IMG/VR virus record: IMGVR_UViG_3300029243_000160
Location: 81,209 to 145,208 of that record
From: a virus
Reading direction: 5' to 3' (one strand)
Length of the DNA: 64,000 nt
In this document: piece after piece, positions 4,235 through 62,165 of the stretch
How the letters are laid out: each line of letters opens with the position of its first letter
How positions within the stretch are numbered: position 1 is the first letter of the stretch
Program-made: the position numbers and the translations under genes
Notes under the pieces: model-generated
Told to the model about the DNA's origin: nothing
Database searches by the model: none
What the model saw: only the letters and a program-made list of their open reading frames with translations

Positions 4235-4278
4235 ATAACGGATATGTATTGACAGTAACGGATTGTTTGTGCTATAAT
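4235..4278 (+). promoter_or_regulatory. Plus-strand operon promoter (TTGACA-18-TATAAT, extended TG) with a box-like ATAACGGATA immediately upstream
   Basis: TTGACA at 4249-4254, TGcTATAAT ending at 4278, ATAACGGATA at 4235-4244. Confidence 0.7.
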
Positions 4279-4284
4279 ATAAAG

Positions 4285-4517
4285 GAAGTATATAGTAGCA
4301 CTTCTATGCTGTCCAATCCGTGACGGCAGATAATGATACAAATGCGGTAGCACCTTCACAAGGGAAGGAAAGTCCGATTATATTATTTATTAGCTGTTAC
4401 CTGCTGTTCTTTTCTTGTCACGCAACATTTGTGAATGGAAAGAGCAAAACATCAGCAGGCTTAATAAATATACAAAGGACGTTCTGAGAATCATTTTCTG
4501 AGAGCGTCCTTTTTCTT
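4285..4517 (+). ncRNA. Candidate ~230-nt leader RNA/sRNA ending in an intrinsic terminator
   Basis: It lies between the promoter (4249-4278) and a 12-bp stem (11 of 12 positions paired: 4477-4488 with 4498-4509) followed by TTTTTCTT. Internal hairpins include CCTGCTG/CAGCAGG. The only ORF here is an antisense artefact. Confidence 0.45.
4477..4517 (+). terminator. Intrinsic terminator or attenuator upstream of the plus-strand operon
   Basis: GGACGTTCTGAG-N9-CTGAGAGCGTCC followed by TTTTTCTT. Confidence 0.7.
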
Positions 4518-4527
4518 AACCTCAAAA

Positions 4528-4551
4528 ATAACGGATATTTTACAGAGTAAT
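4528..4551 (+). promoter_or_regulatory. 24-bp box (plus orientation) between the leader terminator and the SD of gene 4569
   Basis: ATAACGGATATTTTACAGAGTAAT. The box consensus contains the palindrome TTTAC-N3-GTAAA. Confidence 0.7.
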
Positions 4552-4568
4552 CAAAAAGGAGTGACACC

Positions 4569-4949
4569 ATGAAAAACACAGTTGACCTATTTCGCATCTT
4601 CCAGCACGAACAGAAACGTGTTGGCGATAGCATGACAGTTTACTACAACATTGAAGAAAATTCCCTGCAATACAAAAACACCAAAGGCACTCTCACAGTG
4701 ATATTTCATGCTTCTGATGCAGGCGAAGATTTCTATTATCAGAAGTTCGGGGAGCTTGTTTCAGAAAATGGCAAAAAGCTCGGAATCCTTGTGCAGAAAA
4801 CTTATCATAACGGACAAAATGCACATTTGTTTCAAAACCCGATGACTGGCGGCTTGAAAATGTTTGAGATTCCGCAGGAGTTCATTGATATTGCAAGAGC
4901 ATATCAATTCGACCGTGAATCTATTGGCTTGAAAGGAGAAACTGCATGA
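4569..4949 (+). CDS. Hypothetical protein, first gene after the leader terminator
   Basis: 126-aa ORF with SD AAAGGAG 7 nt upstream. The 24-bp box lies directly in front of the SD. Confidence 0.7.
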   Translation: MKNTVDLFRIFQHEQKRVGDSMTVYYNIEENSLQYKNTKGTLTVIFHASDAGEDFYYQKFGELVSENGKKLGILVQKTYHNGQNAHLFQNPMTGGLKMFEIPQEFIDIARAYQFDRESIGLKGETA

Positions 4950-17199: not shown

Positions 17200-17262
17200 T
17201 TTACTCTGTATTATATCCGTTATTTTCATTTACAATATATCAATTTCCCGAAGCACTGTCAA
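17200..17262 (-). promoter_or_regulatory. xis-int promoter (TTGACA-17-TATATT) with the 24-bp box downstream of the -10, in front of the SD
   Basis: -35 at 17257-17262, -10 at 17234-17239, box TTTACTCTGTATTATATCCGTTAT at 17200-17223 (plus-strand text). Confidence 0.65.
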
Positions 17263-17468: not shown

Positions 17469-17540
17469 GCACAGTAGTGTACATTCTACCTTTTGCACAA
17501 AATGACGACTTTCTTTTTCATCTTTCTTACAAGTGTTGCA

Positions 17541-28568: not shown

Positions 28569-28634
28569 ATTATAGCACAATAGTGTACAAAAGTCAAGCA
28601 ATAACTGTTGTTTACTCTGTAAATTATCCGTTAT
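28569..28634 (-). promoter_or_regulatory. Type-1 cassette promoter plus 24-bp box
   Basis: -10 at 28569-28574, -35 at 28592-28597, 13-nt gap, box at 28611-28634. Confidence 0.8.
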
Positions 28635-28666
28635 GTTTTTCAAACACATTTGTGCAAGCATACAAA

Positions 28667-32674: not shown

Positions 32675-32728
32675 ATTATAACACATTGCAATATTACATT
32701 GCAATTTACTCTATCTATTATCCGTTAT
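32675..32728 (-). promoter_or_regulatory. Promoter TTGCAA-18-TGtTATAAT with the 24-bp box abutting the -35
   Basis: -10 at 32675-32680, -35 at 32699-32704, box at 32705-32728. The spacer contains the direct repeat ATTGCAATGT twice. Confidence 0.6.
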
Positions 32729-33098: not shown

Positions 33099-33164
33099 AG
33101 TATAGCACAATAGTGTACAAAAGTCAAGCACAAATCAAATTTTACTCTGTAAATTATTCGTTAT
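33099..33164 (-). promoter_or_regulatory. Type-1 cassette promoter (TTGACT-17-TATACT) plus 24-bp box
   Basis: -10 at 33099-33104, -35 at 33122-33127, 13-nt gap, box at 33141-33164. Confidence 0.75.
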
Positions 33165-33230
33165 CAAAACAAATGATTTTTGTGCAAACATACAAAAAGA
33201 GCAGGAACTTGCCCTGCTCTCTTGCTAATA

Positions 33231-35201
33231 TTACATTGCTTCCAGATAATCCGATTCAAAATAGGCATCTTTCACTCTGCCTTTTGTGATTGCTTTTGCG
33301 ACTGCTCGCATGAACTTTCTTCTGTCCGGAATCACAACGCTGTACTGTTCATTTGTTCTTATGTTCCAGACGATTCCCTTATTCAGTCCGAACGCAATCA
33401 TATAGCAGGCACATTGCAAGAAATGCTCATGGGACAATTCTTCTACGAATTTCAGTTCGTAGACTGTGTTGTTTTTGATAACGTCTGGTCTGCCAACAAT
33501 GTCGTACACATTCTCGTTACCATCAATAAACTGCATGGAAAAGTCTTCCTGCACTTCTTCTTTGCCTGTAAACTCTGTTCGCAGACGATTATGAATCAGG
33601 GAAAGTTGTTCCTCTGTGAGAAACGGCGGCTTTACCTGATAGTAATAACGGTTCTGGTATGTTTCGTATGCTGTCAGATACAGTACCTTTTCTTCCAGTG
33701 TTGCATCTTTTTTCAAGTTCAGAGGCGGTCTGTCGTCAGCAATATCCATTGCATACCGAATCTGTGCATCAATATCATAGTTTTCAAAGAAGCTTGCTTC
33801 CTGATAGATGCCGATGCAAGGAGAAAGGTCAATCATGAAGTCTTCCGAATCCACATCAATCATGGACTTATCTGTTCTTGCTTTCTTTCTTTTGCGAATC
33901 AGCTGATAGCACTCTTCCACATCTTCTTTGTATTTGAAATCGAACATTTCACTTACCTGAAAAGGACGCTTGTACTCTCCGTTTGTCGGAACAGGTGTCG
34001 CAACGATTTCGTCCGGAAGCACATCGCTGAACGGTTCTTTTACAATGATGATTTTTTCTTTGCCTCGGCTCATAGCAACACAGAAGATGTTCCGCAGAAT
34101 CTCATACTTTACGTCCGGATAGCCCATTCTGACAGACCAGTAGTCCAGTGTATAGTCAAAGACAACACAAATCTTTCGTTCCAGCCCCTTGCTGCTGTCA
34201 AAGGTTGTGAAGATGGCTGTAGACTTATCCGGAATCGTTCTGCCTGCATTGTCATCAGAAATGCTGGCGTAAACGGTTTTCTTGTTGAACTTTTCCGGAT
34301 ATTTGTCCTCTAAGTCGTTCAGGACACTTGCCATTTTTCCTGTTCTTGCCCCCAAGCACAGAATGTCAGACGGCTTCTGCTTTGCCAAATACTCAATCAC
34401 ATCGCACAGCTCCATTGTTTCCAGCTTGCAGTCTTTGTTCACACCATTGATTTGCTTTCCCCAGATGTCCCCAAGACGGCTTGCAAGGTCACTACAAAGA
34501 CGGAAGCACTTTGTAAAAGTAACTGTATCATACCTTCCAAGAAACTGATTGATAAAGATAGGCACATTCAGTGTTGTTTTATCGTAAATCTTCTGCTTCA
34601 TATCACCAACAGCAACAATCTGCACCGCTGGATTGCTCTTCTTGACGCATTCCAGCATCTCTGCGATTTCCTGTTCGATGTCCTGATATTCGTCAATCAC
34701 CAGCAAGTCATACTTCGGGACTTCGATTTTTGTCTTGTTCTTCAAGAAAATCTGAATCAAATCAGAAATGCCAGCAGATAAGTGTGCGTTTTTCAAGCAC
34801 ATATATGCAAATCCGTGATAGTTGGTAACAGTTACGTTCTTTCCTCGAATTTTATCTCTTGCGTCAATCTTCAAAAGTGTGTTGTAAGTCAAATACAGCA
34901 CCTTTTTGTCCGGTATCTCATTGCACAGCACCTGAATTGTTGTAGTTTTACCACTACCGATGCAGGCATCTACCAGAACATTCTTTCCTGACTTTGCAAG
35001 AGCAATCATAGATTGCTGCTCTTCGGAAAGGTCAGACAGTTGCATAACTGGCGTTGGTGTCCACTTGTCGAAACGGCTGTCGGCAGTTCCTTTATAGTAC
35101 CACTGCTTTTGTCTAGCGTCCCATTTCGCTCCAAGAGCCTTTACCTCATCTTTTTCTACATAAGGCACTTGCAGATAATGAATTGTATTTTCCCATGCCA
35201 T
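33231..35201 (-). CDS. UvrD-like SF1 helicase with a C-terminal PD-(D/E)xK nuclease and an N-terminal DUF5710-like module
   Basis: ATG35201 has SD AAAGGTGG. N-terminus VPYVEKDEVKALGAKWDARQKQWYY. Walker A GSGKTT. LLVIDEYQD (UvrD motif II). C-terminus GRPDV...YELKFV...QCACY. Confidence 0.85.
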   Translation of the reverse strand: MAWENTIHYLQVPYVEKDEVKALGAKWDARQKQWYYKGTADSRFDKWTPTPVMQLSDLSEEQQSMIALAKSGKNVLVDACIGSGKTTTIQVLCNEIPDKKVLYLTYNTLLKIDARDKIRGKNVTVTNYHGFAYMCLKNAHLSAGISDLIQIFLKNKTKIEVPKYDLLVIDEYQDIEQEIAEMLECVKKSNPAVQIVAVGDMKQKIYDKTTLNVPIFINQFLGRYDTVTFTKCFRLCSDLASRLGDIWGKQINGVNKDCKLETMELCDVIEYLAKQKPSDILCLGARTGKMASVLNDLEDKYPEKFNKKTVYASISDDNAGRTIPDKSTAIFTTFDSSKGLERKICVVFDYTLDYWSVRMGYPDVKYEILRNIFCVAMSRGKEKIIIVKEPFSDVLPDEIVATPVPTNGEYKRPFQVSEMFDFKYKEDVEECYQLIRKRKKARTDKSMIDVDSEDFMIDLSPCIGIYQEASFFENYDIDAQIRYAMDIADDRPPLNLKKDATLEEKVLYLTAYETYQNRYYYQVKPPFLTEEQLSLIHNRLRTEFTGKEEVQEDFSMQFIDGNENVYDIVGRPDVIKNNTVYELKFVEELSHEHFLQCACYMIAFGLNKGIVWNIRTNEQYSVVIPDRRKFMRAVAKAITKGRVKDAYFESDYLEAM

Positions 35202-35240: not shown

Positions 35241-35306
35241 ATTATAGCATAATAGTGTACAAATGTCAAGGTATATTAAGGTGTTACTCTGTAGATTATT
35301 CGTTAT
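35241..35306 (-). promoter_or_regulatory. Type-1 cassette promoter plus 24-bp box
   Basis: -10 at 35241-35246, -35 at 35264-35269, 13-nt gap, box at 35283-35306. Confidence 0.8.
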
Positions 35307-35335
35307 GTTTTTCGTAATTATTTGTGCAAGCATAC

Positions 35336-35361
35336 AAAAAGAGCAGGTTATCTGCCTGCTC
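35336..35361 (-). terminator. Intrinsic terminator after the sigma4/alpha-CTD gene
   Basis: GAGCAGG-N7-CCTGCTC followed by TTTTT on the minus strand. Confidence 0.7.
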
Positions 35362-35362
35362 C

Positions 35363-35890
35363 TTACAATTCCTGTTTCAAAGAGATGCCGAGCTTGTGAA
35401 ACCGCATTTTGATTTCCTGCACACACGCTATGCCGATGCCTGTACAGTTCAAAAGTTCTTTTTCACTGTATTGTTTCAGAATCCCGATGGTATCAATATC
35501 GTTGGATTTTAATGCTGTCGATGTCCGGAAAGAAAATCCAGCTTTCAAAACCGATGTATTTAGCAGCGGATTGGTTTCTGTCGGATTTCTTCTGCATCGG
35601 ACTGAAAAGTATTCATCTTCCATAACACCGCCAAAATCCCGAACTACTTGTCGGATTCGCTCTTTTGTTACGCCGTACTCGTCAGCCAATCGTTCCAACG
35701 TATAGAAGTTGATATATCTTTTTTGAATGATTTCAGCATTTCTCTCATCGGTTCTGTAGAAGGCAGATTCTATCACTTCAACAAGCACATTATGTTTTTC
35801 CTCGTCCAAGTCAATTCCGATTCGTTCCAGCATATCCTTCTGGAACGCTTTTCTACACAGCAGAGTGTTAATCTGCTCTTTACCTGTCAT
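35363..35890 (-). CDS. Chimeric transcription factor: sigma-70 region-4 HTH fused to an RNAP alpha-CTD-like HhH domain
   Basis: YTLERLADEYGVTKERIRQVVRDF matches sigma region 4.2. FSFRTSTALKSNDIDTIGILKQYSEKELLNCTGIGIACVQEIKMRFHKLGISL aligns to E. coli alpha-CTD. SD GAGGTAA. Confidence 0.8.
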   Translation of the reverse strand: MTGKEQINTLLCRKAFQKDMLERIGIDLDEEKHNVLVEVIESAFYRTDERNAEIIQKRYINFYTLERLADEYGVTKERIRQVVRDFGGVMEDEYFSVRCRRNPTETNPLLNTSVLKAGFSFRTSTALKSNDIDTIGILKQYSEKELLNCTGIGIACVQEIKMRFHKLGISLKQEL

Positions 35891-35945
35891 GTCAATTACC
35901 TCATTTCTCTTTGCTTTTGCGTATAAGGTTATATTTAATTATAGC

Positions 35946-35974
35946 ACAGTAGTGTACATTTGTCAAGGTGGTGT
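35946..35974 (-). promoter_or_regulatory. Type-1 cassette promoter, box-less copy, driving the sigma4/alpha-CTD gene
   Basis: -10 at 35946-35951, -35 at 35969-35974. No 24-bp box lies upstream. Confidence 0.8.
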
Positions 35975-36034: not shown

Positions 36035-36064
36035 AAAAAAGAGCAGCGAAAAAATCCACTGCTC
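36035..36064 (-). terminator. Intrinsic terminator after lipoprotein gene 36092
   Basis: GAGCAG-loop-CTGCTC followed by TTTTTT on the minus strand. Confidence 0.6.
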
Positions 36065-36091
36065 TTCTGCGAGATTGCGATTGATGTAAAC

Positions 36092-39062: not shown

Positions 39063-39260
39063 TCATATGAGTGTTTCCCCTCTGTGCTGTTCAATCCAGT
39101 GTTCCAGTTCAACAGAATCTACACGATAAATGCGACCAAACCGAATTACCGGAAAGCCGTCAGAGTTCATCAGCTCAATTGCTTTTTTTCTCCCGATATT
39201 GAAGATTTTCTGAACATCTTCCACACTATAAAATCGTCTTTTTACATCTGTTTCTTGCAA
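39063..39260 (-). CDS. Excisionase-family/MerR-like HTH DNA-binding protein
   Basis: YSVEDVQKIFNIGRKKAIELMNSDGFPVIRFGRIYRV. TTG start 7 nt after GAGGTG. Confidence 0.75.
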   Translation of the reverse strand: MQETDVKRRFYSVEDVQKIFNIGRKKAIELMNSDGFPVIRFGRIYRVDSVELEHWIEQHRGETLI

Positions 39261-39276: not shown

Positions 39277-40176
39277 TCAGCATACAGTCAGCAGGATTTT
39301 TGCAATTGCCAGAACCGCCAGATGTGCAGGATAAAAATATCTGCAAGTGACAATACAGGCTTTACTTTTCAGAATCTTTGTCAGCCATTTCGGAAGAATA
39401 AAGCACTTATGCTTTTCACTGCACTGTGCAAAGAAAAACAGAATCAGCAACAAAAATGTTGCCAGATAAACTGTAATATTACTTCCCATTGACAAGATGA
39501 AAATTCCCATCGCAACAATCTGCCACAGCCACTTGCAATGCTTTCTGTTTCTTGCAAAATTGAACAGACCAACGAGCAGGATTCCTCTCCAGCTGTAATC
39601 AACTTTGAAATAATATGCCAGTGCAAAAATCACACCAAAAACAATTCCTGTTCCGCAATTCACAGCAAGCTTTCTTACTTTTCCAGTTCCAAAAAACTTG
39701 CTCCAGCATTTCTGATTACTCTGCAAATTATCCGTTATTGTCAGCATTAAAAAGCAAAGGAAGAATGTGAAAATCGTATTCTGCCCTTTGAAAATGTCCA
39801 TGCTGATTTCGGTCGGGTTTTGCAAAGTTAATGCGAGGTCAAAAGGAATTTCAGATACCAACGCAAGCACTATCAAGCGTATCAGATGTCGCATTGGATT
39901 TTGTGTGTGATAGAAGCTTTCTACAAACAGAAAAGCAAAGATAGGAAATGCAAATCTTCCGACAATGAGACACCACAGTTCTGCATTGTCGCCGATTACT
40001 CCGGTACTATACAATACCTTTCCCAAGTGGTCTGTTACCATTGTCAGAACCGCAATGATTCTGAGCAGGTAATACCATTCTGTTGAGATGCGTTCTGGAC
40101 GAGTGGCAGTAATCGCTTTCTGCTCTGTCAAACGATGCTGCTTTTTCTCCATACGGATTGAACTTCTTTTTCCCAT
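39277..40176 (-). CDS. traX: TraX-family membrane protein
   Basis: LLRIIAVLTMVTDHLGK and a multi-TM profile. ATG40176 lies 9 nt after GGAGTG. Confidence 0.8.
   Translation of the reverse strand: MGKRSSIRMEKKQHRLTEQKAITATRPERISTEWYYLLRIIAVLTMVTDHLGKVLYSTGVIGDNAELWCLIVGRFAFPIFAFLFVESFYHTQNPMRHLIRLIVLALVSEIPFDLALTLQNPTEISMDIFKGQNTIFTFFLCFLMLTITDNLQSNQKCWSKFFGTGKVRKLAVNCGTGIVFGVIFALAYYFKVDYSWRGILLVGLFNFARNRKHCKWLWQIVAMGIFILSMGSNITVYLATFLLLILFFFAQCSEKHKCFILPKWLTKILKSKACIVTCRYFYPAHLAVLAIAKILLTVC
39715..39738 (-). promoter_or_regulatory. 24-bp box copy (22/24 match) inside the traX coding sequence
   Basis: ATTACTCTGCAAATTATCCGTTAT versus the consensus TTTACTCTGTAAATTATCCGTTAT. Confidence 0.4.
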
Positions 40177-40210: not shown

Positions 40211-40266
40211 ATTATAGCCGTTTCATCAATCTATGTCAACCGTTACTGAATGTTTATATCCGTTAT
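40211..40266 (-). promoter_or_regulatory. traX-operon promoter TTGACA-17-TATAAT with a partial box
   Basis: -10 at 40211-40216, -35 at 40234-40239, TATATCCGTTAT at 40255-40266. Confidence 0.65.
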
Positions 40267-45743: not shown

Positions 45744-45809
45744 ATTATAGCACAGTAGTGTACAAATGTCAAGTGCTTTTAGATGTTTACTCTGTAAAAT
45801 ATCCGTTAT
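45744..45809 (-). promoter_or_regulatory. Type-1 cassette promoter plus 24-bp box; its downstream flank matches the type-2 cassette
   Basis: Exact 30-mer. -10 at 45744-45749, -35 at 45767-45772, box at 45786-45809. ACCTTACATATA lies at 45730-45741. Confidence 0.8.
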
Positions 45810-46617: not shown

Positions 46618-49600
46618 TTACTTTGTCACAGGCAGGGTGTCGATATAGCGAACCAAGAACTGCAACAGTGTGGTTGCATCGTTGGCATCAATCTTGTCAT
46701 CAGAGAAGGTGTTTGCATTGATTGCTGCCTGTCCCTTCAAAGTGACAGTGCCAATTACGGTCTTGTTGAGCATAACTGCATCTGCAAGGTCTACCTTGCC
46801 GTCCAAGTTCAAATCGCCATACAGCGTTTCCTTCGGAACACCAGTGCCTGTTGCTGTGGTGGTTGTACCAGAGCCTGTTCCGTCAGTAGTGTCACTTACA
46901 GTAGTCACGCTTTCGCTTGCGGTGGTAGTTGCACTGACGTTTTCAGAAGTCTGGTCTGTGCCTGCTCCTGTAGAGGTGCTGTTGCTGTCCACAGTGGACG
47001 AAGTGACATCGGTCGTAGAAACAGTTGTCTCTGTTTCAGAACCGCTTACAGAGGATTCTGAGCCGTCTGTGGTGGTTGTCACAGCAGTGGTAGTTGTCTG
47101 CTTCGCAGAAGCGTTGATTACCAGTGTGCCAGTCACCTTGTCGTAGTTTTCATCATCGGGAGTATATTCCCATGTCAGAGTATTATCGCCTTCGGTCAGC
47201 TTCTTTACTTCATCGACTACCCATGAAACAGAACCACTCGGTGTGTCCTTGCCCAGAATCGGGTCAGGCAGGTCATCTCCAGCTTCGTAGTCCTTGTCCG
47301 GAACGCTGACTTCCACATTCTTGACAGTTCCCTTTGCGATTCGGAATGTCAGGAGCAGGTCAGCTGTAGTGCCGTTTTCTGCGGTTACGGTGTAAGTTAC
47401 CTTCTTTTCTCCGGATTCCATCGGAGTACCGTTCAGCTTTGTGTCGTCCAGTTCGATGCCCTTAACAGCTTCACTGCCCTCAGCCAGAGCAACAGACTTC
47501 ACACCGCCGACCTTGCCGGAGTTCTTCACATACCCAGCAATGTTGATAGGATTCATCTTTTCTCCGTATGTCAGGTCGATTGTGCTGTTTTCTGCGGTCA
47601 CGTCCAGAACAATATCTGTTACAGTACCCTTTTTCAGGTCGTTCATATCAACATCTCTGTAGCCGTCCGTGATTTCACCGACATTTATAGGGTGTTCCAC
47701 AACATTACCGTAACTGTCGTCTTCCTCTGCAAGGAAAGTCAGTCTGTAGTTGCCAGTAGGCAGCAGAACATCATACTTGCCTTCCTTAACAGCATAGCAG
47801 GCTGCACCAGCTGCATAAGCTTCTGCCGGAGAGCTGTACTTGCTGTCGTAGATGTAAATTTTGCCGTCTGTTGCGTTGTTATCTTCCACATAAGAAGGGT
47901 ACATTCCTTTGAACGTATTCAGGCGAATCCGCACAAGGTCTGTGCCATTCGTCAGCTCATAGGTGCAGTCAGGCAGGAACAGCTTCTTGGAATTGTCTGC
48001 ATCGGTGGAGACCTTTACTGCCGGAGCATCTTCCTTGCAGTCACGCAGTTCCTCGGACTGGATATTGTAAGAGCCGTTGCCATTCAGATATGCAGTGGAA
48101 ACTTCCCGAATATCCTGTGTCCCTTCCGGAGCTGTCAGCTTGTAGTCAGAATCGTGTGTCGCAAATGCCAGCTTTCCATTCAGGAACATGGCGAAGTAAT
48201 CGCTGCCTGCATCGTCAAACATCTTCTGCACATCTTCTGCTCCATACTTGGAATCGGAATCGACCAGCAAATTGCCGTCCTTATCGAAAGAACTGTTCAC
48301 TGTGAACTTGTAATCGCCCTTTGCAGTATACAGTTCCTGCAAGCCAGTGCTGTACACGCCGTCCTGCTCTGTAGACTGGTCGAAGCTGTTCGCAGAATCT
48401 TTGTTTTTCAGCTGGTCAGTAATCAGGCTGAAATCCTTTTCAGAATCAACCTTTCCGGTTTCTGCATTTGTAATGCCGCTGATGTCATTTGTGTCGAAAA
48501 TCGTATCGTACTCAGTCTGGTCATCTGTTACCGGAGAAGTCAGTCCCAATTCAGTGTAATACTTGGAATAGCCATAGCTCTTGATGAACTTTCCGATATA
48601 GTCTCTGTCGTACTCTGTGTTCGGCATCATGGTGTAGCCATACGGCTGTCCATTAGAAGTGAATCCTGCAATGTAGAAGCCACTGCTTTCCAGACTGTCG
48701 TTTGCGTAGCCAGCATTGAACTCAGCCCCTACTGGAGCACCGCCCTTATATGCAGCCACGATTTCCGGCTTGAACTTGTAATACATGGTGTAATCGGTCT
48801 CATCGTTCAGATTGATTGCAAACGCATAGCCGCCCTTGACGGTATAGTCAATATTTCCAGTGTCTGCGTTCTTAAAGTACAACCCCTCAAACTTCGGTGC
48901 TGCATATGCAACAGAAAAATTCTTTTTGCCAATGCTGGAGATGCTGTCCCCAGCGTTGTTCAGACGATAAATCTCCATATACGCACCATTTGCACCACTT
49001 GCATCACGAATGTCATCAACAGCCATCAGCAGTCCGGTGTCGTTCGGCACATAAGTGACTGGCTGTCCGTTGTACATTGTCATCATGCAGTCTGCATTGC
49101 TGGTAAAGTAGCCTGTCAGAGAATTGCCGTCTTCATCGAACACACGATAAAACTCATTGGTCTTGGTCTTGCTTGTTACCATAGACAAATCCAGAGGAAC
49201 AGCATTTGTGAACAGGTCTGCAATCGGAGTGTAACTGCTGCCACTCTTAGCAATGCGAATCGGAATCAGCATACCGCCAATCTTAGAGCCACCATGAACC
49301 TCAGCAAACACAGTAGTGTAGCCTGCCTCGTACATCTCACCCAGAATGGTGTCGCAGATAACACGGTTTGTGACCTTTGCTGTGTACTTTGAGAAGTTCT
49401 CTGTGGCAATAATAGAAAAACCGATGCTGAACTTGTTGTCCTTGACATTGGTGTCCTCGTAAGAATACTTTGTCAGGCTGTTTTCAAATGCCATGTACGG
49501 CAGGACAATGTTCATGTCCGTGTCCTTGACTACATACACACCCTTGGAAAGCGTGGCTTCTGCCGCCATTGACTTGTCCGTACCTGTGGTTGTATAGTTC

Positions 49601-49698
49601 ACTGCACTTGCTGTCATTCCAGCAAGCGAGGTTGCCATACAAGTAACGGCAGTCAGCACCGCTACGCAGGTCTTCAATTTGTTGTGATTTGTTCTCAT
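46618..49698 (-). CDS. Large secreted surface protein with a C-terminal type-I dockerin
   Basis: ATG49698 with SD GGAG. Signal peptide. T/S-rich linker. C-terminal GDLNLDGKVDLADAVMLNK...DKIDANDATTLLQF is a duplicated Ca-binding dockerin motif. Confidence 0.85.
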   Translation of the reverse strand: MRTNHNKLKTCVAVLTAVTCMATSLAGMTASAVNYTTTGTDKSMAAEATLSKGVYVVKDTDMNIVLPYMAFENSLTKYSYEDTNVKDNKFSIGFSIIATENFSKYTAKVTNRVICDTILGEMYEAGYTTVFAEVHGGSKIGGMLIPIRIAKSGSSYTPIADLFTNAVPLDLSMVTSKTKTNEFYRVFDEDGNSLTGYFTSNADCMMTMYNGQPVTYVPNDTGLLMAVDDIRDASGANGAYMEIYRLNNAGDSISSIGKKNFSVAYAAPKFEGLYFKNADTGNIDYTVKGGYAFAINLNDETDYTMYYKFKPEIVAAYKGGAPVGAEFNAGYANDSLESSGFYIAGFTSNGQPYGYTMMPNTEYDRDYIGKFIKSYGYSKYYTELGLTSPVTDDQTEYDTIFDTNDISGITNAETGKVDSEKDFSLITDQLKNKDSANSFDQSTEQDGVYSTGLQELYTAKGDYKFTVNSSFDKDGNLLVDSDSKYGAEDVQKMFDDAGSDYFAMFLNGKLAFATHDSDYKLTAPEGTQDIREVSTAYLNGNGSYNIQSEELRDCKEDAPAVKVSTDADNSKKLFLPDCTYELTNGTDLVRIRLNTFKGMYPSYVEDNNATDGKIYIYDSKYSSPAEAYAAGAACYAVKEGKYDVLLPTGNYRLTFLAEEDDSYGNVVEHPINVGEITDGYRDVDMNDLKKGTVTDIVLDVTAENSTIDLTYGEKMNPINIAGYVKNSGKVGGVKSVALAEGSEAVKGIELDDTKLNGTPMESGEKKVTYTVTAENGTTADLLLTFRIAKGTVKNVEVSVPDKDYEAGDDLPDPILGKDTPSGSVSWVVDEVKKLTEGDNTLTWEYTPDDENYDKVTGTLVINASAKQTTTTAVTTTTDGSESSVSGSETETTVSTTDVTSSTVDSNSTSTGAGTDQTSENVSATTTASESVTTVSDTTDGTGSGTTTTATGTGVPKETLYGDLNLDGKVDLADAVMLNKTVIGTVTLKGQAAINANTFSDDKIDANDATTLLQFLVRYIDTLPVTK

Positions 49699-51769: not shown

Positions 51770-51804
51770 AGATTTACGATTGTTCGTGTTTCTTACAATA
51801 TCTA

Positions 51805-51870
51805 TTATAGCACAGTAGTGTACAAATGTCAAGCGTTTTGCTCGTTTTACTCTGTAAATTATTCGTTATG
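51805..51870 (-). promoter_or_regulatory. Type-1 cassette promoter plus 24-bp box
   Basis: Exact 30-mer. -10 at 51805-51810, -35 at 51828-51833, box at 51847-51870. Confidence 0.8.
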
Positions 51871-51969: not shown

Positions 51970-54081
51970 TTACTCTCTTACTGGAAGAGAAGCGATTGTG
52001 TGAACCAAGAACTGCAACAGAGCAGTGGAATCGTTGGCATCAATGTTACCGTCCGCATAGCACTCTGCATTGTCCTTTGCCTGCTCGTTCAGCATAACAG
52101 AACCTGCGGTTGCCTTGTTCAGCAGAACAGCATCGGAGATGTCCACTCTGCCGTCCAGCGTAACATCGCCCAGCAGAATTGTACCACTGCTGCCCTGTGT
52201 GGTTACTGTAGTGGTGGTTGTGGAAGAACCCTGTCCTGTGGTGCTGGTGGTCGTTGTGCCACCGTCCAGAGCAACGAACGGAATGTTGTTCGCAGTAGCA
52301 TATGCTTCTACAGTAGAACCTGTATAACCATACAGTGTCAGGTTATCGCAACTACCAAATGCTTTGTTCTCAATCATAATATCTGTTCTGGTAATCTTAG
52401 CTTCTCGCAATCCGGTATTCACAAATGCGTATTTTCCAATGAATGTAACATTAGAAAAATCAAAAGATTCCAGCTGTCGGCAGCTGGAAAACTGACCGCC
52501 GTTCAATCTGAGTTCTCCGTCTCCATAGGTCTTTACAGTTGTGAGATTGTACATACTTGTAAATTCTATATTTGCAGAACAGTTTACGCCCTTTTTCCCA
52601 AGCTCGAACGGTCGTTCTGTGTTGTTCATGTACAGCTCCAATGTTGAAGAAATTTTATTTCCATCTTCATCAGAAGTTGCTGTCATAATATCATCAAAAG
52701 CACCTTCATACCATTGGCTATCGTCATATACACCCAGCTTCAAGGATTCCAGTTCGGCACAATTCTTGAAAGCTTCGTTGTCAAAAAGGTGTGCAGAAGT
52801 TAAGTCCAAGCTTTTCAATTTATAGCAATTCACGAAAGCTTCTCTGCCGAAGCCAAGAGCGTTGCCAACATTGACCTTCGTCAGGTTTTCACAATAAGAG
52901 AAGTTTCCGTCACTATAATACAGCTCACCATTTCCGACTACTTCAAAAGTGTTCAGCAATCTATCTTCACGTTCAAAGTCATCAGGGAGAACATAAGCGT
53001 CCTCATTGTTGGTGTAAATCGTCATCGAATACGGCTTGACGTTTCCTTCACTTTTTTGTCTTCGCCCAAACGCATATTCTCCTATTTCCAGCTTATCGTT
53101 CAGGGCAATTTGAATATCGTTTGCACTTGTACAACCAAGAAAAGCAGCATCGCCAATGTACCGCAGATTTTTGTTCTTCAACTGAATCTCTGACAGCTGT
53201 GTACAGCCTTCAAACGCATCATCAGCAACAACAACGACATGAGAGAAATCAAAATTTCTCAGCATAGTGTTGTTCCGAAACGCCATGTTTCCGATGCCAA
53301 CTTCTCCGTCACCTTCAAAGCGTACTTCACGGATTCTGTTGCTGTCATAAAATCCGCTAGAAATTGTCATCATGTTGCTCTTATCCATATTGAGCTGGAA
53401 GGTCAAAGTGAACGCCGTTCCAAAAGCTTTGCTCTCACCAAAAATATGCTGACCTATGCCGTTAAGCTGTGCTGCTTCACAGTTTTTATCAGTAATACTG
53501 ATTGTGACTTCTTCCAGAGAAGAACAGCCACTGAACGCTTCGTTGCCAACACGCCCCAGTTTCGTATTTGTCAGATTTACAGTCGTCAGCTTTTCACAAC
53601 CCATAAATGCGTAGTCCAACATATCTACGATTTTCTCAAAAGCCACCGTCTTCATGCGAGAACAGCCGTGAAATGCGTCCTTGTAGAGTACCATTTCTTC
53701 ATTTTCAAAGTCCACAGACTTCAAATTGGTGCAGTTTGCAAATGCGGCTTCGCCAATAAATTTCACATCTTCTGCCAGTGTCAGGCTGACGTTTTCCAGT
53801 TCACGGAATGCTTCTGTAGTGCCAGTCACAGTATAATTACCGTCACCATTATCTTCAAACGTAAAGTAATCTGTCTGACTGGTATCACACTGTACCTCTA
53901 CAGGAACATTTGTAGTGGCTTCTACAAGCACAGGTGCTGTATCAGATACAATAGTGTCGCTGTCTGTTACAACAACATCACTTGCAGGAAGGTCTACCGC
54001 CCACGCAGTCATCGGCAGTGCCTGTATACACATGACACCAGCCAACAGCAAACCTGCTGCCGTTCGTTTTAATTTCTTCAT
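51970..54081 (-). CDS. BspA-type leucine-rich-repeat surface protein with a C-terminal type-I dockerin
   Basis: Signal peptide. Many F.gC..L..v repeats. C-terminal GDVTLDGRVDISDAVLLNK...GNIDANDSTALLQF dockerin. Confidence 0.9.
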   Translation of the reverse strand: MKKLKRTAAGLLLAGVMCIQALPMTAWAVDLPASDVVVTDSDTIVSDTAPVLVEATTNVPVEVQCDTSQTDYFTFEDNGDGNYTVTGTTEAFRELENVSLTLAEDVKFIGEAAFANCTNLKSVDFENEEMVLYKDAFHGCSRMKTVAFEKIVDMLDYAFMGCEKLTTVNLTNTKLGRVGNEAFSGCSSLEEVTISITDKNCEAAQLNGIGQHIFGESKAFGTAFTLTFQLNMDKSNMMTISSGFYDSNRIREVRFEGDGEVGIGNMAFRNNTMLRNFDFSHVVVVADDAFEGCTQLSEIQLKNKNLRYIGDAAFLGCTSANDIQIALNDKLEIGEYAFGRRQKSEGNVKPYSMTIYTNNEDAYVLPDDFEREDRLLNTFEVVGNGELYYSDGNFSYCENLTKVNVGNALGFGREAFVNCYKLKSLDLTSAHLFDNEAFKNCAELESLKLGVYDDSQWYEGAFDDIMTATSDEDGNKISSTLELYMNNTERPFELGKKGVNCSANIEFTSMYNLTTVKTYGDGELRLNGGQFSSCRQLESFDFSNVTFIGKYAFVNTGLREAKITRTDIMIENKAFGSCDNLTLYGYTGSTVEAYATANNIPFVALDGGTTTTSTTGQGSSTTTTTVTTQGSSGTILLGDVTLDGRVDISDAVLLNKATAGSVMLNEQAKDNAECYADGNIDANDSTALLQFLVHTIASLPVRE

Positions 54082-55175: not shown

Positions 55176-55634
55176 TTATTTTGCGGAATACAGCTTATGC
55201 TTGTCCGAAAAATTCATGAGCCATTCATGAGCCATTTTTTCTGCTTCATCAAACGTGTTGCCTGTTACTTTAAGGAAAATTGCTCGCTTGTGAAGTAGTG
55301 TACTCAGCAGAACATTATCTCTGTCTGCATCGTTGCTGACAGTATACCACTGTCCGGATTTACCGAAATACACAATGTATTCTCGCTTTTCCACTCCGTT
55401 ATCAGAAGTTGTTTCCACAGAAAGAATGTCGTTCTCAAAGATTGGATTGTCGCTCCGGTCTTGAAATCCGGTATACTGGCTCACGGTTTCTCCGCAAACC
55501 ACATAATCGGTGTCGTCCTTGCCACGAATGAAGTGCTGTACAGACTTTCCGGTTAAAAAGTTCTCCTTGTAATAGTAGCCTTCTACCCATTTTCTGTTGC
55601 TTTCTCGCTTTGCCTTAAATAAAATCTCTCTCAT
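55176..55634 (-). CDS. YopX-family phage protein (copy 1)
   Basis: MREILFKAKR...KWVEGYYY...QYTGFQD...IFENDIL is typical of YopX. First gene after type-2 cassette copy b. Confidence 0.8.
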   Translation of the reverse strand: MREILFKAKRESNRKWVEGYYYKENFLTGKSVQHFIRGKDDTDYVVCGETVSQYTGFQDRSDNPIFENDILSVETTSDNGVEKREYIVYFGKSGQWYTVSNDADRDNVLLSTLLHKRAIFLKVTGNTFDEAEKMAHEWLMNFSDKHKLYSAK

Positions 55635-57152: not shown

Positions 57153-57383
57153 TTATAGCACCCTCGTGTTCCAAGCCTCTGTTACTTGTAATTCACAAAG
57201 TTCACGCTCATTGTACTGATTATTGTCCAAATTGATTCCAACAACTGGACTTCTTGCATGACATTTCATACATCTTACTGTAACAGAACAATGTTTTTTA
57301 CCGTAATTAAAAGTACGCTTACTTTCAATCTTTAGTTTTGTGCTACCACAGAACGGACAAGGTTTTAATTTATTTTCACTCAT
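57153..57383 (-). CDS. Lar-family restriction-alleviation-like zinc protein
   Basis: ATG57383 with SD GAGGTG. LKPCPFCGS...CMKC...EAWNTR. Confidence 0.75.
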   Translation of the reverse strand: MSENKLKPCPFCGSTKLKIESKRTFNYGKKHCSVTVRCMKCHARSPVVGINLDNNQYNERELCELQVTEAWNTRVL

Positions 57384-57432
57384 TATTTCACCTCGCAGTT
57401 TCTTTGCTATTTCCCTTAGACGTTGCACCATA

Positions 57433-60015: not shown

Positions 60016-60381
60016 TTATTGCGGACAATATACCAGTTTGTTTTCTCTTTTATTCCAGTACCAGTTTTCGCATTCTGCCGGAAAGCCTTTCTCATAGTGT
60101 GCATAAGCATACTGCTCTATGGCAGTATGGATTGCTCTGTCAGGAACAGCGTTCAGAACAGCCATGCGATAACTCTGGGTATTATCCCACACAAAGATTG
60201 TCACCTTTTTTATTTCTGCTTTTTGATACGTTACATTTGCTCCTGCAACTTCAAAGTGCCACCGCTTGCAGTCACGGCAGATAGTCAGTTCATTGGTTTC
60301 TTTCACATAATAGTGATATTCTTTCGGTAAACTCGCAAAAGCAAGCTGAAAGCGTTTCTTTTTCACTATCTGATTTTTCAT
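60016..60381 (-). CDS. Hypothetical protein
   Basis: 121 aa with ATGA overlap to the upstream gene. Confidence 0.55.
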   Translation of the reverse strand: MKNQIVKKKRFQLAFASLPKEYHYYVKETNELTICRDCKRWHFEVAGANVTYQKAEIKKVTIFVWDNTQSYRMAVLNAVPDRAIHTAIEQYAYAHYEKGFPAECENWYWNKRENKLVYCPQ

Positions 60382-60869
60382 GCCAAGTCCTTTTCTTCTG
60401 GAGAACTTGCATTGAACTCTGCTACTCGCAGGAGCTTCTTTGCAATTTCATAGTCCTGCTCCCAGACGCTCTTCTGAATTGGCTGCACGTCCATAACGCC
60501 AAGCAAAGCCAGTAATTTCTTCCAGAGGTCTGCTTCTGCGACAGGTCTGCCTTGTTCCGTTTCCCAGCCATTGTTCTGCCACTGCTGATACCGTTTCTGA
60601 ATCAACACATTTCTGACATATCCGCAATTGATGTACAAAGAGACCTTTGAACCGGATTCGACTGATTCAGAAAGTGTGCGGTTCAGAGCTGCCAGTGTTG
60701 CTGTCCGCAGCATTTCTGCCTGATTACCGTCTTTCTTTCCGAATGTAAAAGTAGTTATCATTCCGCAACAACCAATTGCTCTGTCCAGCAGATACACGCT
60801 GGAGCAGGCTTTTGAAGATGCACAGTTCCAGACGCTTTCTACATAGATGTCATAGTGTCTCTGTGTCAT
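60378..60869 (-). CDS. RNase H-like domain protein (divergent)
   Basis: YDIYVE..., LYINCGYVRNVLI..W..NGWETEQGRPV..ADLW resemble RNase HI motifs. ATG60869. Confidence 0.6.
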   Translation of the reverse strand: MTQRHYDIYVESVWNCASSKACSSVYLLDRAIGCCGMITTFTFGKKDGNQAEMLRTATLAALNRTLSESVESGSKVSLYINCGYVRNVLIQKRYQQWQNNGWETEQGRPVAEADLWKKLLALLGVMDVQPIQKSVWEQDYEIAKKLLRVAEFNASSPEEKDLA

Positions 60870-61842: not shown

Positions 61843-61908
61843 ATTATAGCACAATGGTGTACGAATGTCAAGTGTTTTTGTGGATTTACTCTGTAAATTA
61901 TCCGTTAC
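61843..61908 (-). promoter_or_regulatory. Type-1 cassette promoter plus 24-bp box, driving the non-coding leader
   Basis: -10 at 61843-61848, -35 at 61866-61871, 13-nt gap, box at 61885-61908. Confidence 0.8.
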
Positions 61909-61947: not shown

Positions 61948-62121
61948 TTATTCCCCATTCAATTTCAGCTCTTTGCGAATCACGCCAGTGATGGTCGTGT
62001 GCTGGGCTTTTGCCATTTCGCACAGTTTCGCATACTCTTCGTTTGTGAACAGCAGGGACAGTCTTTTTCTGGAAGCAACATACTTCTTCTGTGCCTTTTT
62101 CGCTGCTATTGTCTTCGGCAT
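61948..62121 (-). CDS. Ribbon-helix-helix (CopG/Arc-like) small protein
   Basis: ATG62121 lies 9 nt after AAAGGAG. RLSLLFTNEEYAKLCEMAKAQHTTITGVIRKEL has an RHH pattern. Confidence 0.6.
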   Translation of the reverse strand: MPKTIAAKKAQKKYVASRKRLSLLFTNEEYAKLCEMAKAQHTTITGVIRKELKLNGE

Positions 62122-62165
62122 CTGATGATACTCCTTTCGCATAGATTTATCACCTTTTATCTGAT

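Follow-up and report, generated by a model that had tools for sequence, protein, structure and literature searches.

This locus raises the question of which DNA is read, and to what effect, by a small protein that joins two promoter-reading modules of RNA polymerase (RNAP) and is encoded in a mobile element whose promoters repeatedly carry the same 24-bp box. The gene lies on the minus strand (35363..35890, stop codon included) of a 64,000-nucleotide (nt) stretch of the IMG/VR record IMGVR_UViG_3300029243_000160, hereafter the window, and encodes a protein of 175 amino acids (aa) in which a sigma-70 region 4-like domain is followed by a domain resembling the C-terminal domain of the RNAP alpha subunit (alpha-CTD). 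A sequence-only reading of the window had proposed this protein as a candidate reader of the box, which it placed where UP elements are contacted, and as the first product of a cascade that then acts on the promoters carrying the box, an unusual way to take over transcription. As judged from the analysis of its sequence, the protein is most likely a constitutively made regulator of the regulon of its element. The favoured, although still tentative, explanation is that this stand-alone regulator of transcription binds DNA with its two domains and reads the box itself.

A fusion of sigma-70 region 4 and an alpha-CTD-like domain

The open reading frame (ORF) was found exactly as proposed in the ORF list, and the helix-turn-helix (HTH) motif quoted for its product, YTLERLADEYGVTKERIRQVV, corresponds to residues 63-83. 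The N-terminal half (residues ~30-85, encoded at 35636..35803 on the minus strand) was assigned to sigma-70 region 4, including regions 4.1 and 4.2, by Pfam, NCBIfam and profile comparisons. In a Pfam hmmscan, Sigma70_r4 (PF04545) matched residues 48-84 with 31.6 bits against a gathering cut-off of 24.1. An NCBIfam match to RpoH reached 2e-8, the RpoH, RpoS, RpoD and ECF models being matched only in part and at their C-terminal ends. A profile built from 14 family members matched residues 534-609 of Escherichia coli sigma70 at 2.5e-13, and as this match spans the whole of the region, the N-terminal half represents a complete region 4. Region 4 of RpoH and SigA also appeared among the matches of a single-sequence phmmer search against the Protein Data Bank (PDB), together with alpha-CTDs (best 3.2e-5). 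The recognition helix reads TKERIRQ, compared with T-R-E-R-I-R-Q in sigma70, with K76, E77, R78, R80 and Q81 aligned with sigma70 R584, E585, R586, R588 and Q589, which we take, with their numbering, to be the established contacts to the -35 element. The equivalents of E585, R586, R588 and Q589 are kept in 26/26 relatives of the same architecture, and those of R562 and F563 are R58 and Y59. No region 2 (PF04542) was detected in the protein by Pfam or NCBIfam, and only ~29 residues, which are specific to the subfamily, precede region 4. By its domain content the protein is not a sigma factor, as it lacks region 2, and without regions 2 and 3 it would be unable to melt a -10 element or act as such a factor; what it adds to region 4 is the N-terminal segment and the alpha-CTD.

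The C-terminal half (residues ~102-173, 35372..35587 on the minus strand) is an alpha-CTD-like double helix-hairpin-helix (HhH) domain according to Pfam, Foldseek and residue counts. RNA_pol_A_CTD (PF03118) matched residues 106-162 with 34.8 bits (gathering cut-off 23.8), and the family profile matched the Bacillus subtilis alpha-CTD at 1.7e-22. An AlphaFold2 (AF2) model of the single sequence was unusable, with a mean predicted local distance difference test score (pLDDT) of 46.5, and a model based on an alignment of 28 sequences was taken instead (pLDDT 89.9). Residues ~105-173 of this model matched isolated alpha-CTD chains in Foldseek, including 1LB2, 3N4M and 1Z3E, with template modelling (TM) scores of 0.85-0.93 and root-mean-square deviations of 0.8-2.4 A. 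With both Pfam cut-offs passed, and with the profile matches and the Foldseek comparison of the AF2 model, the proposed chimera proved to be genuine; profile searches returned sigma region 4 and the alpha-CTD for the two halves, and the structure search returned the alpha-CTD fold. NCBIfam RpoA models were matched only over their last ~70 residues and far under their equivalog cut-offs. Without the alpha N-terminal domain for dimerization and assembly, the protein is, to judge from its composition, not an alpha subunit; it consists of two domains joined by a helical linker and of nothing else from either parent.

An ungapped match placed residues 101-172 on E. coli alpha 244-315, an offset of +143. 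On this numbering the domain, which has the same fold as the RNAP alpha-CTD (PF03118; e.g. 1LB2, 3N97, 1Z3E), keeps the equivalents of R265 (R122), G296 (G153) and E302 (E159), whereas N268, C269, K298 and S299 are replaced by T125, A126, A155 and C156, respectively, and the 261 determinant (D259, E261) is not kept. The roles of these residues in DNA contact by alpha are presumed from established knowledge. In 28 relatives of the same architecture, R265 was kept in 28/28, N268 in 25/28, G296 in 27/28, K298 in 15/28 and S299 in 17/28, and the family as a whole looks like an UP-type DNA reader by its residues. The conservation in relatives of the E/R/R/Q set of sigma region 4 and of alpha R265 and G296 suggests DNA binding by both halves across the family. 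A syntenic locus (L012) encodes the one true ortholog (P0002, 49% identity), in which the recognition helix TKERIRQ and the segment SFRTSTALK are unchanged. The second hairpin of the protein and its ortholog has the sequence GIG, as in generic HhH motifs.

Promoter cassettes and the 24-bp box

Flanked by a consensus promoter and a terminator of its own, the gene forms a monocistronic unit. The promoter, TTGACA-N17-(TG)TATAAT at 35938..35966 on the minus strand, matches the consensus at 12/12 positions and has a TG extended -10. A terminator-like hairpin followed by a T-run lies directly 3' of the stop codon (35342..35356, minus strand), and a second one (gcagaagagcag...cgctgctctttttt; 36035..36070, minus strand) closes the upstream lipoprotein operon and thus isolates the gene; the latter was taken from the sequence by eye and was not called by the terminator scan. 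The promoter had previously been placed at 35946-35974, which is 8 nt off its true site, but the absence of the box from it was correctly described.

This promoter is one of eight near-identical cassettes on the minus strand, TTGACA-N17-(TG)TATAAT, each with a perfect TTGACA and a nearly invariant spacer (TGTACACTAYTGTGC); four cassettes are within two mismatches of its 29-mer, where none would be expected by chance. Six cassettes carry the box, and these promoters are 12/12 consensus with a TG extended -10 as well. They lie, all on the minus strand, at 28569..28634 (box 28611-28634, promoter 28569-28597), 33099..33164 upstream of a YodL gene (box 33141-33164, promoter 33099-33127), 35241..35306 upstream of a DUF5710/UvrD-like helicase gene (box 35283-35306, promoter 35241-35269), 45744..45809 (box 45786-45809, promoter 45744-45772), 51804..51869 (box 51846-51869, promoter 51804-51832) and 61843..61908 (box 61885-61908, promoter 61843-61871). 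The statement that the gene's own promoter is one of two cassette copies without the box was borne out, the other being the promoter at 24149..24177 (minus strand), and both have a degenerate remnant at the same place. In the syntenic locus the order is TraX, HTH_17, three lipoproteins, the ortholog gene and the helicase; the same promoter cassette is present, the neighbouring promoters have variants of the box, and the ortholog's own promoter has no TAACG core.

The box has the form ATAACGRAT-N7-CAGAGTAAA, in which two conserved blocks (TAACGRAT and CAGAGTAA) enclose a variable A/T-rich middle. This middle includes a -35-like TTTACA, which varies to TCTACA, TTTGCA, TTGGCA and TATACA; as the hexamer belongs to the variable part, it was dropped as a main argument for a sigma region 4 target. 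No internal dyad was seen in the box by eye, and its orientation relative to the downstream gene is constant. In the window and related loci taken together, TAAC lies 36 nt before the -35 element in 13 of the 14 box-bearing cassettes and 35 nt before it in the other. On the assumption that the transcription start site (TSS) is 7 nt after the -10 element, the cassette box spans about -72 to -49 with its centre at -60.5, and not the -40 to -60 that had been given for an UP-type site.

The box occurs ten times in the window, compared with zero copies expected by chance, and the earlier count of six in cassettes stands, but four further copies lie outside the cassette position. One is in the leader of a Tn916-type xis gene, 5 nt before its Shine-Dalgarno sequence (17200..17223, minus strand), and another is between a terminator-like hairpin and the Shine-Dalgarno sequence (~5 nt) of the gene at 4569-4949 (4528..4551, plus strand). 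The third abuts the -35 element of a different promoter (TTGCAA-N18-TATAAT) upstream of a GmrSD_N gene (32705..32728, minus strand), and the fourth is inside the traX ORF (39715..39738, minus strand), ~450 nt upstream of an HTH_17 gene (39063-39260). In addition, two TAACGGAT cores are present at the consensus promoter P4236 (4236..4263, plus strand), one 5 nt upstream of its -35 element and the other in its spacer, and the traX promoter (40243..40265, minus strand) has two TAACGG direct repeats 21 nt apart, the second abutting the -35 element. Such a spread of positions is that of a global operator and not of an UP-like site, and from the box in the xis leader excision may belong to the same regulon. 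Taken together, this oriented, bipartite sequence recurs at nearly all promoters of the element. The argument for an UP element is weakened by the -72 to -49 position in the cassettes, by the copies against a -35 element, before two Shine-Dalgarno sequences and within traX, and by the core in a spacer. As a separate point, the T125, A155 and C156 substitutions described above weaken the case for alpha-CTD-type DNA contacts.

Several other repeated elements were noted. The traX copy of the box is in frame within the coding sequence (...ITDNLQSN...); it might serve as an operator or promoter within the gene, or be the sequence from which the box evolved. The spacer motif TGTACACTACTGTGC also occurs alone at 17469-17483 (minus strand), directly upstream of a -35 element (TTGACT) before xis, and probably represents a further operator besides the box. 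A third element, TTTGTATGCTTGCACAAA, is an imperfect dyad located just past the terminator of four cassettes (24229-24246, 28649-28666, 33179-33196 and 35321-35338, minus strand), four matches being found where 0.26 were expected. At 4236-4560 (plus strand) a promoter is followed by a ~230-nt leader ending in a terminator-like hairpin (4478-4515), the box and a gene, a layout that looks like attenuation or antitermination. An Rfam scan of the window gave no match.

A candidate reader of the box

Under the favoured explanation, the protein would be made constitutively and would bind the asymmetric, bipartite box as a monomer or head-to-tail, with the HTH reading a conserved block in the major groove and the HhH domain holding the A/T-rich variable middle or flank through the backbone or the minor groove. 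In this way it would control almost every promoter of the element, including that of xis. This reading is favoured by the identity of the domains and the conservation of their residues, by the box-less own promoter shared with the ortholog, by the number, orientation and phasing of the box, by the p576 precedent discussed below, and by the small number of other candidates: only three further DNA-binding regulators are recognisable in the 64 kb, namely an HTH_17 protein, the Tn916-type Xis and a NikA-like protein. Establishment and cargo genes as well as excision would be kept down, with transient de-repression after transfer, and the box copies centred at -60.5 could also allow a contact with RNAP in a class I manner. 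Because the target promoters are already consensus, and boxes or cores are found in a spacer, against -35 elements and before ribosome-binding sites (RBS), repression or modulation appears likelier than obligatory activation. As to the cascade once proposed, in which the protein is made first and then acts on the box-bearing promoters, its starting point, a box-less own promoter, stands and is conserved in the syntenic locus, but obligatory activation is less plausible at targets that are already 12/12 consensus with TG.

The closest described logic is that of the Reg576 regulon, by analogy and not by membership. Reg576 of the Bacillus plasmid p576 controls an experimentally defined repressor regulon of establishment genes, which are transiently expressed after transfer; it is a ribbon-helix-helix (RHH) protein that binds a dual heptamer as a dimer of dimers and represses its own promoter, and its operators are located upstream of -35 elements and in promoter spacers, as well as within ORFs and immediately ahead of the RBS (Val-Calvo et al. 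2018, PMC6294495). As in that regulon, several strong sigmaA promoters of the element studied here have an extended -10 and lie next to copies of one short operator. The operator positions are varied and include sites shortly ahead of the RBS, and anti-restriction-type genes are part of the cargo. In contrast to the autoregulated RHH protein Reg576, the candidate has HTH and HhH domains, and its own promoter is without the TAACG core.

Comparison with activators gives a more mixed picture. Class I activators bind near -61.5, as CAP does at lac, and p4 of phage phi29 activates or represses through the alpha-CTD. The cassette box, with its centre at ~-60.5 (TSS assumed) and its phasing fixed in 13/14 cassettes, resembles such sites, but the other box copies are not so placed and overlap or lie downstream of promoters; furthermore, the targets are already 12/12 consensus with TG and not weak promoters, and the protein has no homology to CAP or p4. 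Regulators of mobile elements that have a sigma region 4 only include Orf7 of Tn916 and the phage proteins RinA and ArpU, none of which is known to have an alpha-CTD domain. The present protein can tentatively be likened to them as a small mobile-element protein with a sigma region 4-type HTH in an element that has a Tn916-type Int and Xis, and it is best classed as a mobile-element HTH regulator with an added alpha-CTD.

Several points weigh against the protein as the reader of the box. Three canonical DNA-contact residues are gone from both the protein and its ortholog (N268 to T, K298 to A, S299 to C). Moreover, because the -35-like TTTACA falls in the variable middle of the box, its conserved blocks are not what the sigma region 4 residues would obviously predict. 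The element, which is at least 131 kb long and was examined in part, also encodes ParB and other candidates. The p576 repressor is autoregulated, whereas the promoter of this gene has no box, and repression from -60 would need looping or a contact with RNAP.

Alternative roles

A possible, if less likely, alternative is that the box is read by another protein of the element, such as the HTH_17 protein, an RHH-type repressor or a regulator encoded outside the window, and that the sigma region 4/alpha-CTD protein reads -35 and upstream DNA. Its most obvious target would then be the TTGACA hexamers with the adjacent upstream DNA, where it would copy the footprint of the holoenzyme and compete for or bookmark promoters. 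This fits the intact -35-reading residues (K76, E77, R78, R80 and Q81) and the perfect TTGACA of all cassettes. The operon of the HTH_17 protein, with TAACGG repeats at its promoter and the box in traX, would suit an autoregulated repressor as in p576, and the reverse complement of the box contains TTATCCG, which is identical to the Reg576 heptamer TTATCCC at 6/7 positions. However, the HTH_17 protein is without a relative in the PDB, and proteins of this kind are usually of the excisionase type. Similarly, a small candidate at 61948-62142 had no Reg576-like or RHH match in Pfam or the PDB, examination of the small ORFs for an RHH protein like Reg576 lent this idea no support, and generic binding to -35 elements would provide no specificity for the element.

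It is unlikely, although conceivable, that the protein acts on RNAP itself, with sigma region 4 docking on the beta-flap tip or displacing host region 4, and with the alpha-CTD copy substituting for its original or titrating partners (e.g. of the Spx type), so that host transcription is reprogrammed. The presence of region 4.1 besides 4.2 in the match to sigma70 534-609, the R562 and F563 equivalents R58 and Y59, and the fact that the closest alpha-CTD matches are from Firmicutes hosts are consistent with this possibility, and the loss of N268, K298 and S299 could mean a shift away from UP-type DNA reading. Nevertheless, R265 and G296 are kept, and a module for protein-protein contacts alone would have no need of the strict conservation seen in the family at the DNA-contact residues of the HTH. 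An equally unlikely idea is that the half of the holoenzyme that reads upstream promoter DNA has been copied in portable form in this protein, which would occupy, bookmark or bridge promoter-upstream DNA or serve as a decoy for attackers of sigma region 4 and the alpha-CTD.

It is improbable that the protein belongs to a conflict arsenal of defence or anti-defence, as a decoy or sensor copying the RNAP modules most attacked by phage takeover proteins. In Clostridium perfringens, a relative is encoded directly upstream of a PbeA-like PLD-helicase within a restriction/defence island. Parts of the protein match the models of BREX PglW and of MzaA, and genes of the establishment and anti-defence type (Lar, Macro, NADAR, GmrSD_N, RNase H) abound in the surrounding cargo. 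Yet the PglW and MzaA matches are weak and cover single domains (E 3e-4 and 2e-5), no conserved partner effector gene adjoins the gene, and the downstream helicase has its own promoter.

Finally, it is very improbable that the protein is the region 4 half of a split sigma factor or a RinA/ArpU-type late-gene activator, in which case a dedicated holoenzyme would use the box as a promoter element: two boxes do lie ~5 nt before Shine-Dalgarno sequences, one of them without an obvious sigmaA promoter between hairpin and gene, and phage relatives are found near terminase genes, but no Sigma70_r2 protein was present among the window proteins that were scanned or had precomputed Pfam hits, the conserved blocks are spaced by only ~10 bp, less than a -35/-10 pair would require, which makes the box unlikely as a promoter for a special sigma factor, and six boxes are upstream of perfect sigmaA promoters.

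Distribution of the family

The fusion is highly prevalent and also strongly conserved. The exact 175-aa protein is present in 470 collection blocks of metagenomes, for which sample names suggest the human gut as the source, and one near-identical variant was found on at least 1000 contigs; its NCBI name is 'DNA-directed RNA polymerase subunit alpha C-terminal domain-containing protein'. A word-index search recovered the 99% cluster alone, an exhaustive search yielded 385 representatives at E <= 1e-3, many matched across both domains, and a profile search yielded 646 proteins, dozens of them with precomputed PF03118 and PF04545 hits. The profile search also retrieved an abundant class of 331-333-aa HTH_17/alpha-CTD/sigma region 4 proteins in Caudoviricetes, and BFVD contains ~130-aa phage proteins of the HTH and alpha-CTD kind. 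The architecture thus recurs in hundreds of metagenomic protein clusters of phages, integrative elements and defence islands, and the view of the chimera as unusual has lost ground. No description of the fusion or experiment on it was found in the literature searched by domain pair, by 'alpha-CTD-like' and by Pfam accessions and names. The family is widespread yet unstudied; both of its domains are textbook ones, and the architecture is already visible in databases.

The uncharacterised phage and defence-island proteins have the same two Pfam domains in one polypeptide as the protein studied here. They are mostly 20-35% identical to it, most of them keep N268, K298 and S299, and many differ by extra HTH_17, HTH_3 or further alpha-CTD repeats or by another domain order. 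Some are encoded near terminase genes on siphophage-like contigs. In C. perfringens (L017/L018, 8001-14514), a protein with two alpha-CTDs followed by sigma region 4 is the first of a four-gene block within the restriction/defence island, the block ending in the PbeA-like PLD/SNF2 helicase, and a further match to the BREX PglW model falls in the alpha-CTD part of this relative. A phage contig (L030, 685-3232 and 14636-14677) encodes an HTH_3, sigma region 4 and alpha-CTD relative, and its early region has nine copies of a terminator-promoter cassette of its own (TTCGCA..TTGCA..CCTATAATGAAG). In another phage (L032, 10730-15000) the sigma region 4/alpha-CTD gene is followed by a ~4-kb tRNA-like repeat array and then by late and terminase genes. 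A repeat search of five loci of distant relatives revealed no shared box, a protein-pattern scan of GTDB genomes revealed no relative, and a megablast of 24000-46000 against phage and plasmid collections gave no match. The promoter pattern had a single match in GTDB, a 1.8-kb contig of an Oscillospiraceae metagenome-assembled genome.

The mobile element and its cargo

The gene is probably carried by a large integrative, likely conjugative, element of gut Oscillospiraceae-like bacteria. Among the proteins encoded in the window are a Tn916-type Int and Xis, LPD-domain proteins, TraX and a NikA-like protein for mobilisation. In a copy from another metagenome, the element ends just beyond int, where the dlt genes of the host begin. 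Identity to that copy stops at window position ~15389 (L011 15263), and beyond this point the window has LPD11/LPD25, primase zinc-ribbon and DHH genes with the same box; the element may have its other end at this junction, or the junction may reflect a circular form or a tandem arrangement with a related element. The IMG/VR record IMGVR_UViG_3300029704_000248 (L020-L027), classified there as a 131-kb viral genome, is the same element at 95-99% identity. In the examined parts of this contig ParA/ParB, a PIF1 helicase, a DUF4942 methylase and a second integrase are encoded, and no capsid genes were found. Across all examined parts of the element, neither capsid nor type IV secretion system genes were detected, whereas the Tn916-type Int/Xis, NikA-like, ParAB, LPD and TraX proteins are present. 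The viral label in IMG/VR may be wrong, the choice being between an integrative and conjugative element and a prophage.

Between 17.5 and 64 kb the minus strand carries a long row of small cassettes, all in the same direction, with genes of the establishment and anti-defence types. These include, on the minus strand, Lar (57153-57431), YopX (55176-55634) and RNase H (60378-60869 and at ~23.5 kb), and further genes for Macro, NADAR, GmrSD_N, RNase_T and DUF3990 proteins; a GajB/UvrD-like helicase with DUF5710 is encoded at 33231-35201 (minus strand). Such cargo is typical of establishment and anti-defence regions. Two large secreted proteins with dockerin type I domains are encoded at 46618-49698 and 51970-54081 (minus strand), one of them with BspA-type leucine-rich repeats, and they hint at a host of the cellulosome/amylosome type, like Ruminococcus.

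Implications

If the DNA target of the protein were known, it would become clear how a mobile element so common in the gut uses one repeated control module to coordinate its excision with dozens of cargo and anti-defence cassettes. It could also reveal a new use of RNAP parts as stand-alone regulators. If the protein is indeed a mimic of polymerase modules, its relatives would form a widespread and unrecognised class of polymerase-mimicking regulators in mobile elements and phages.

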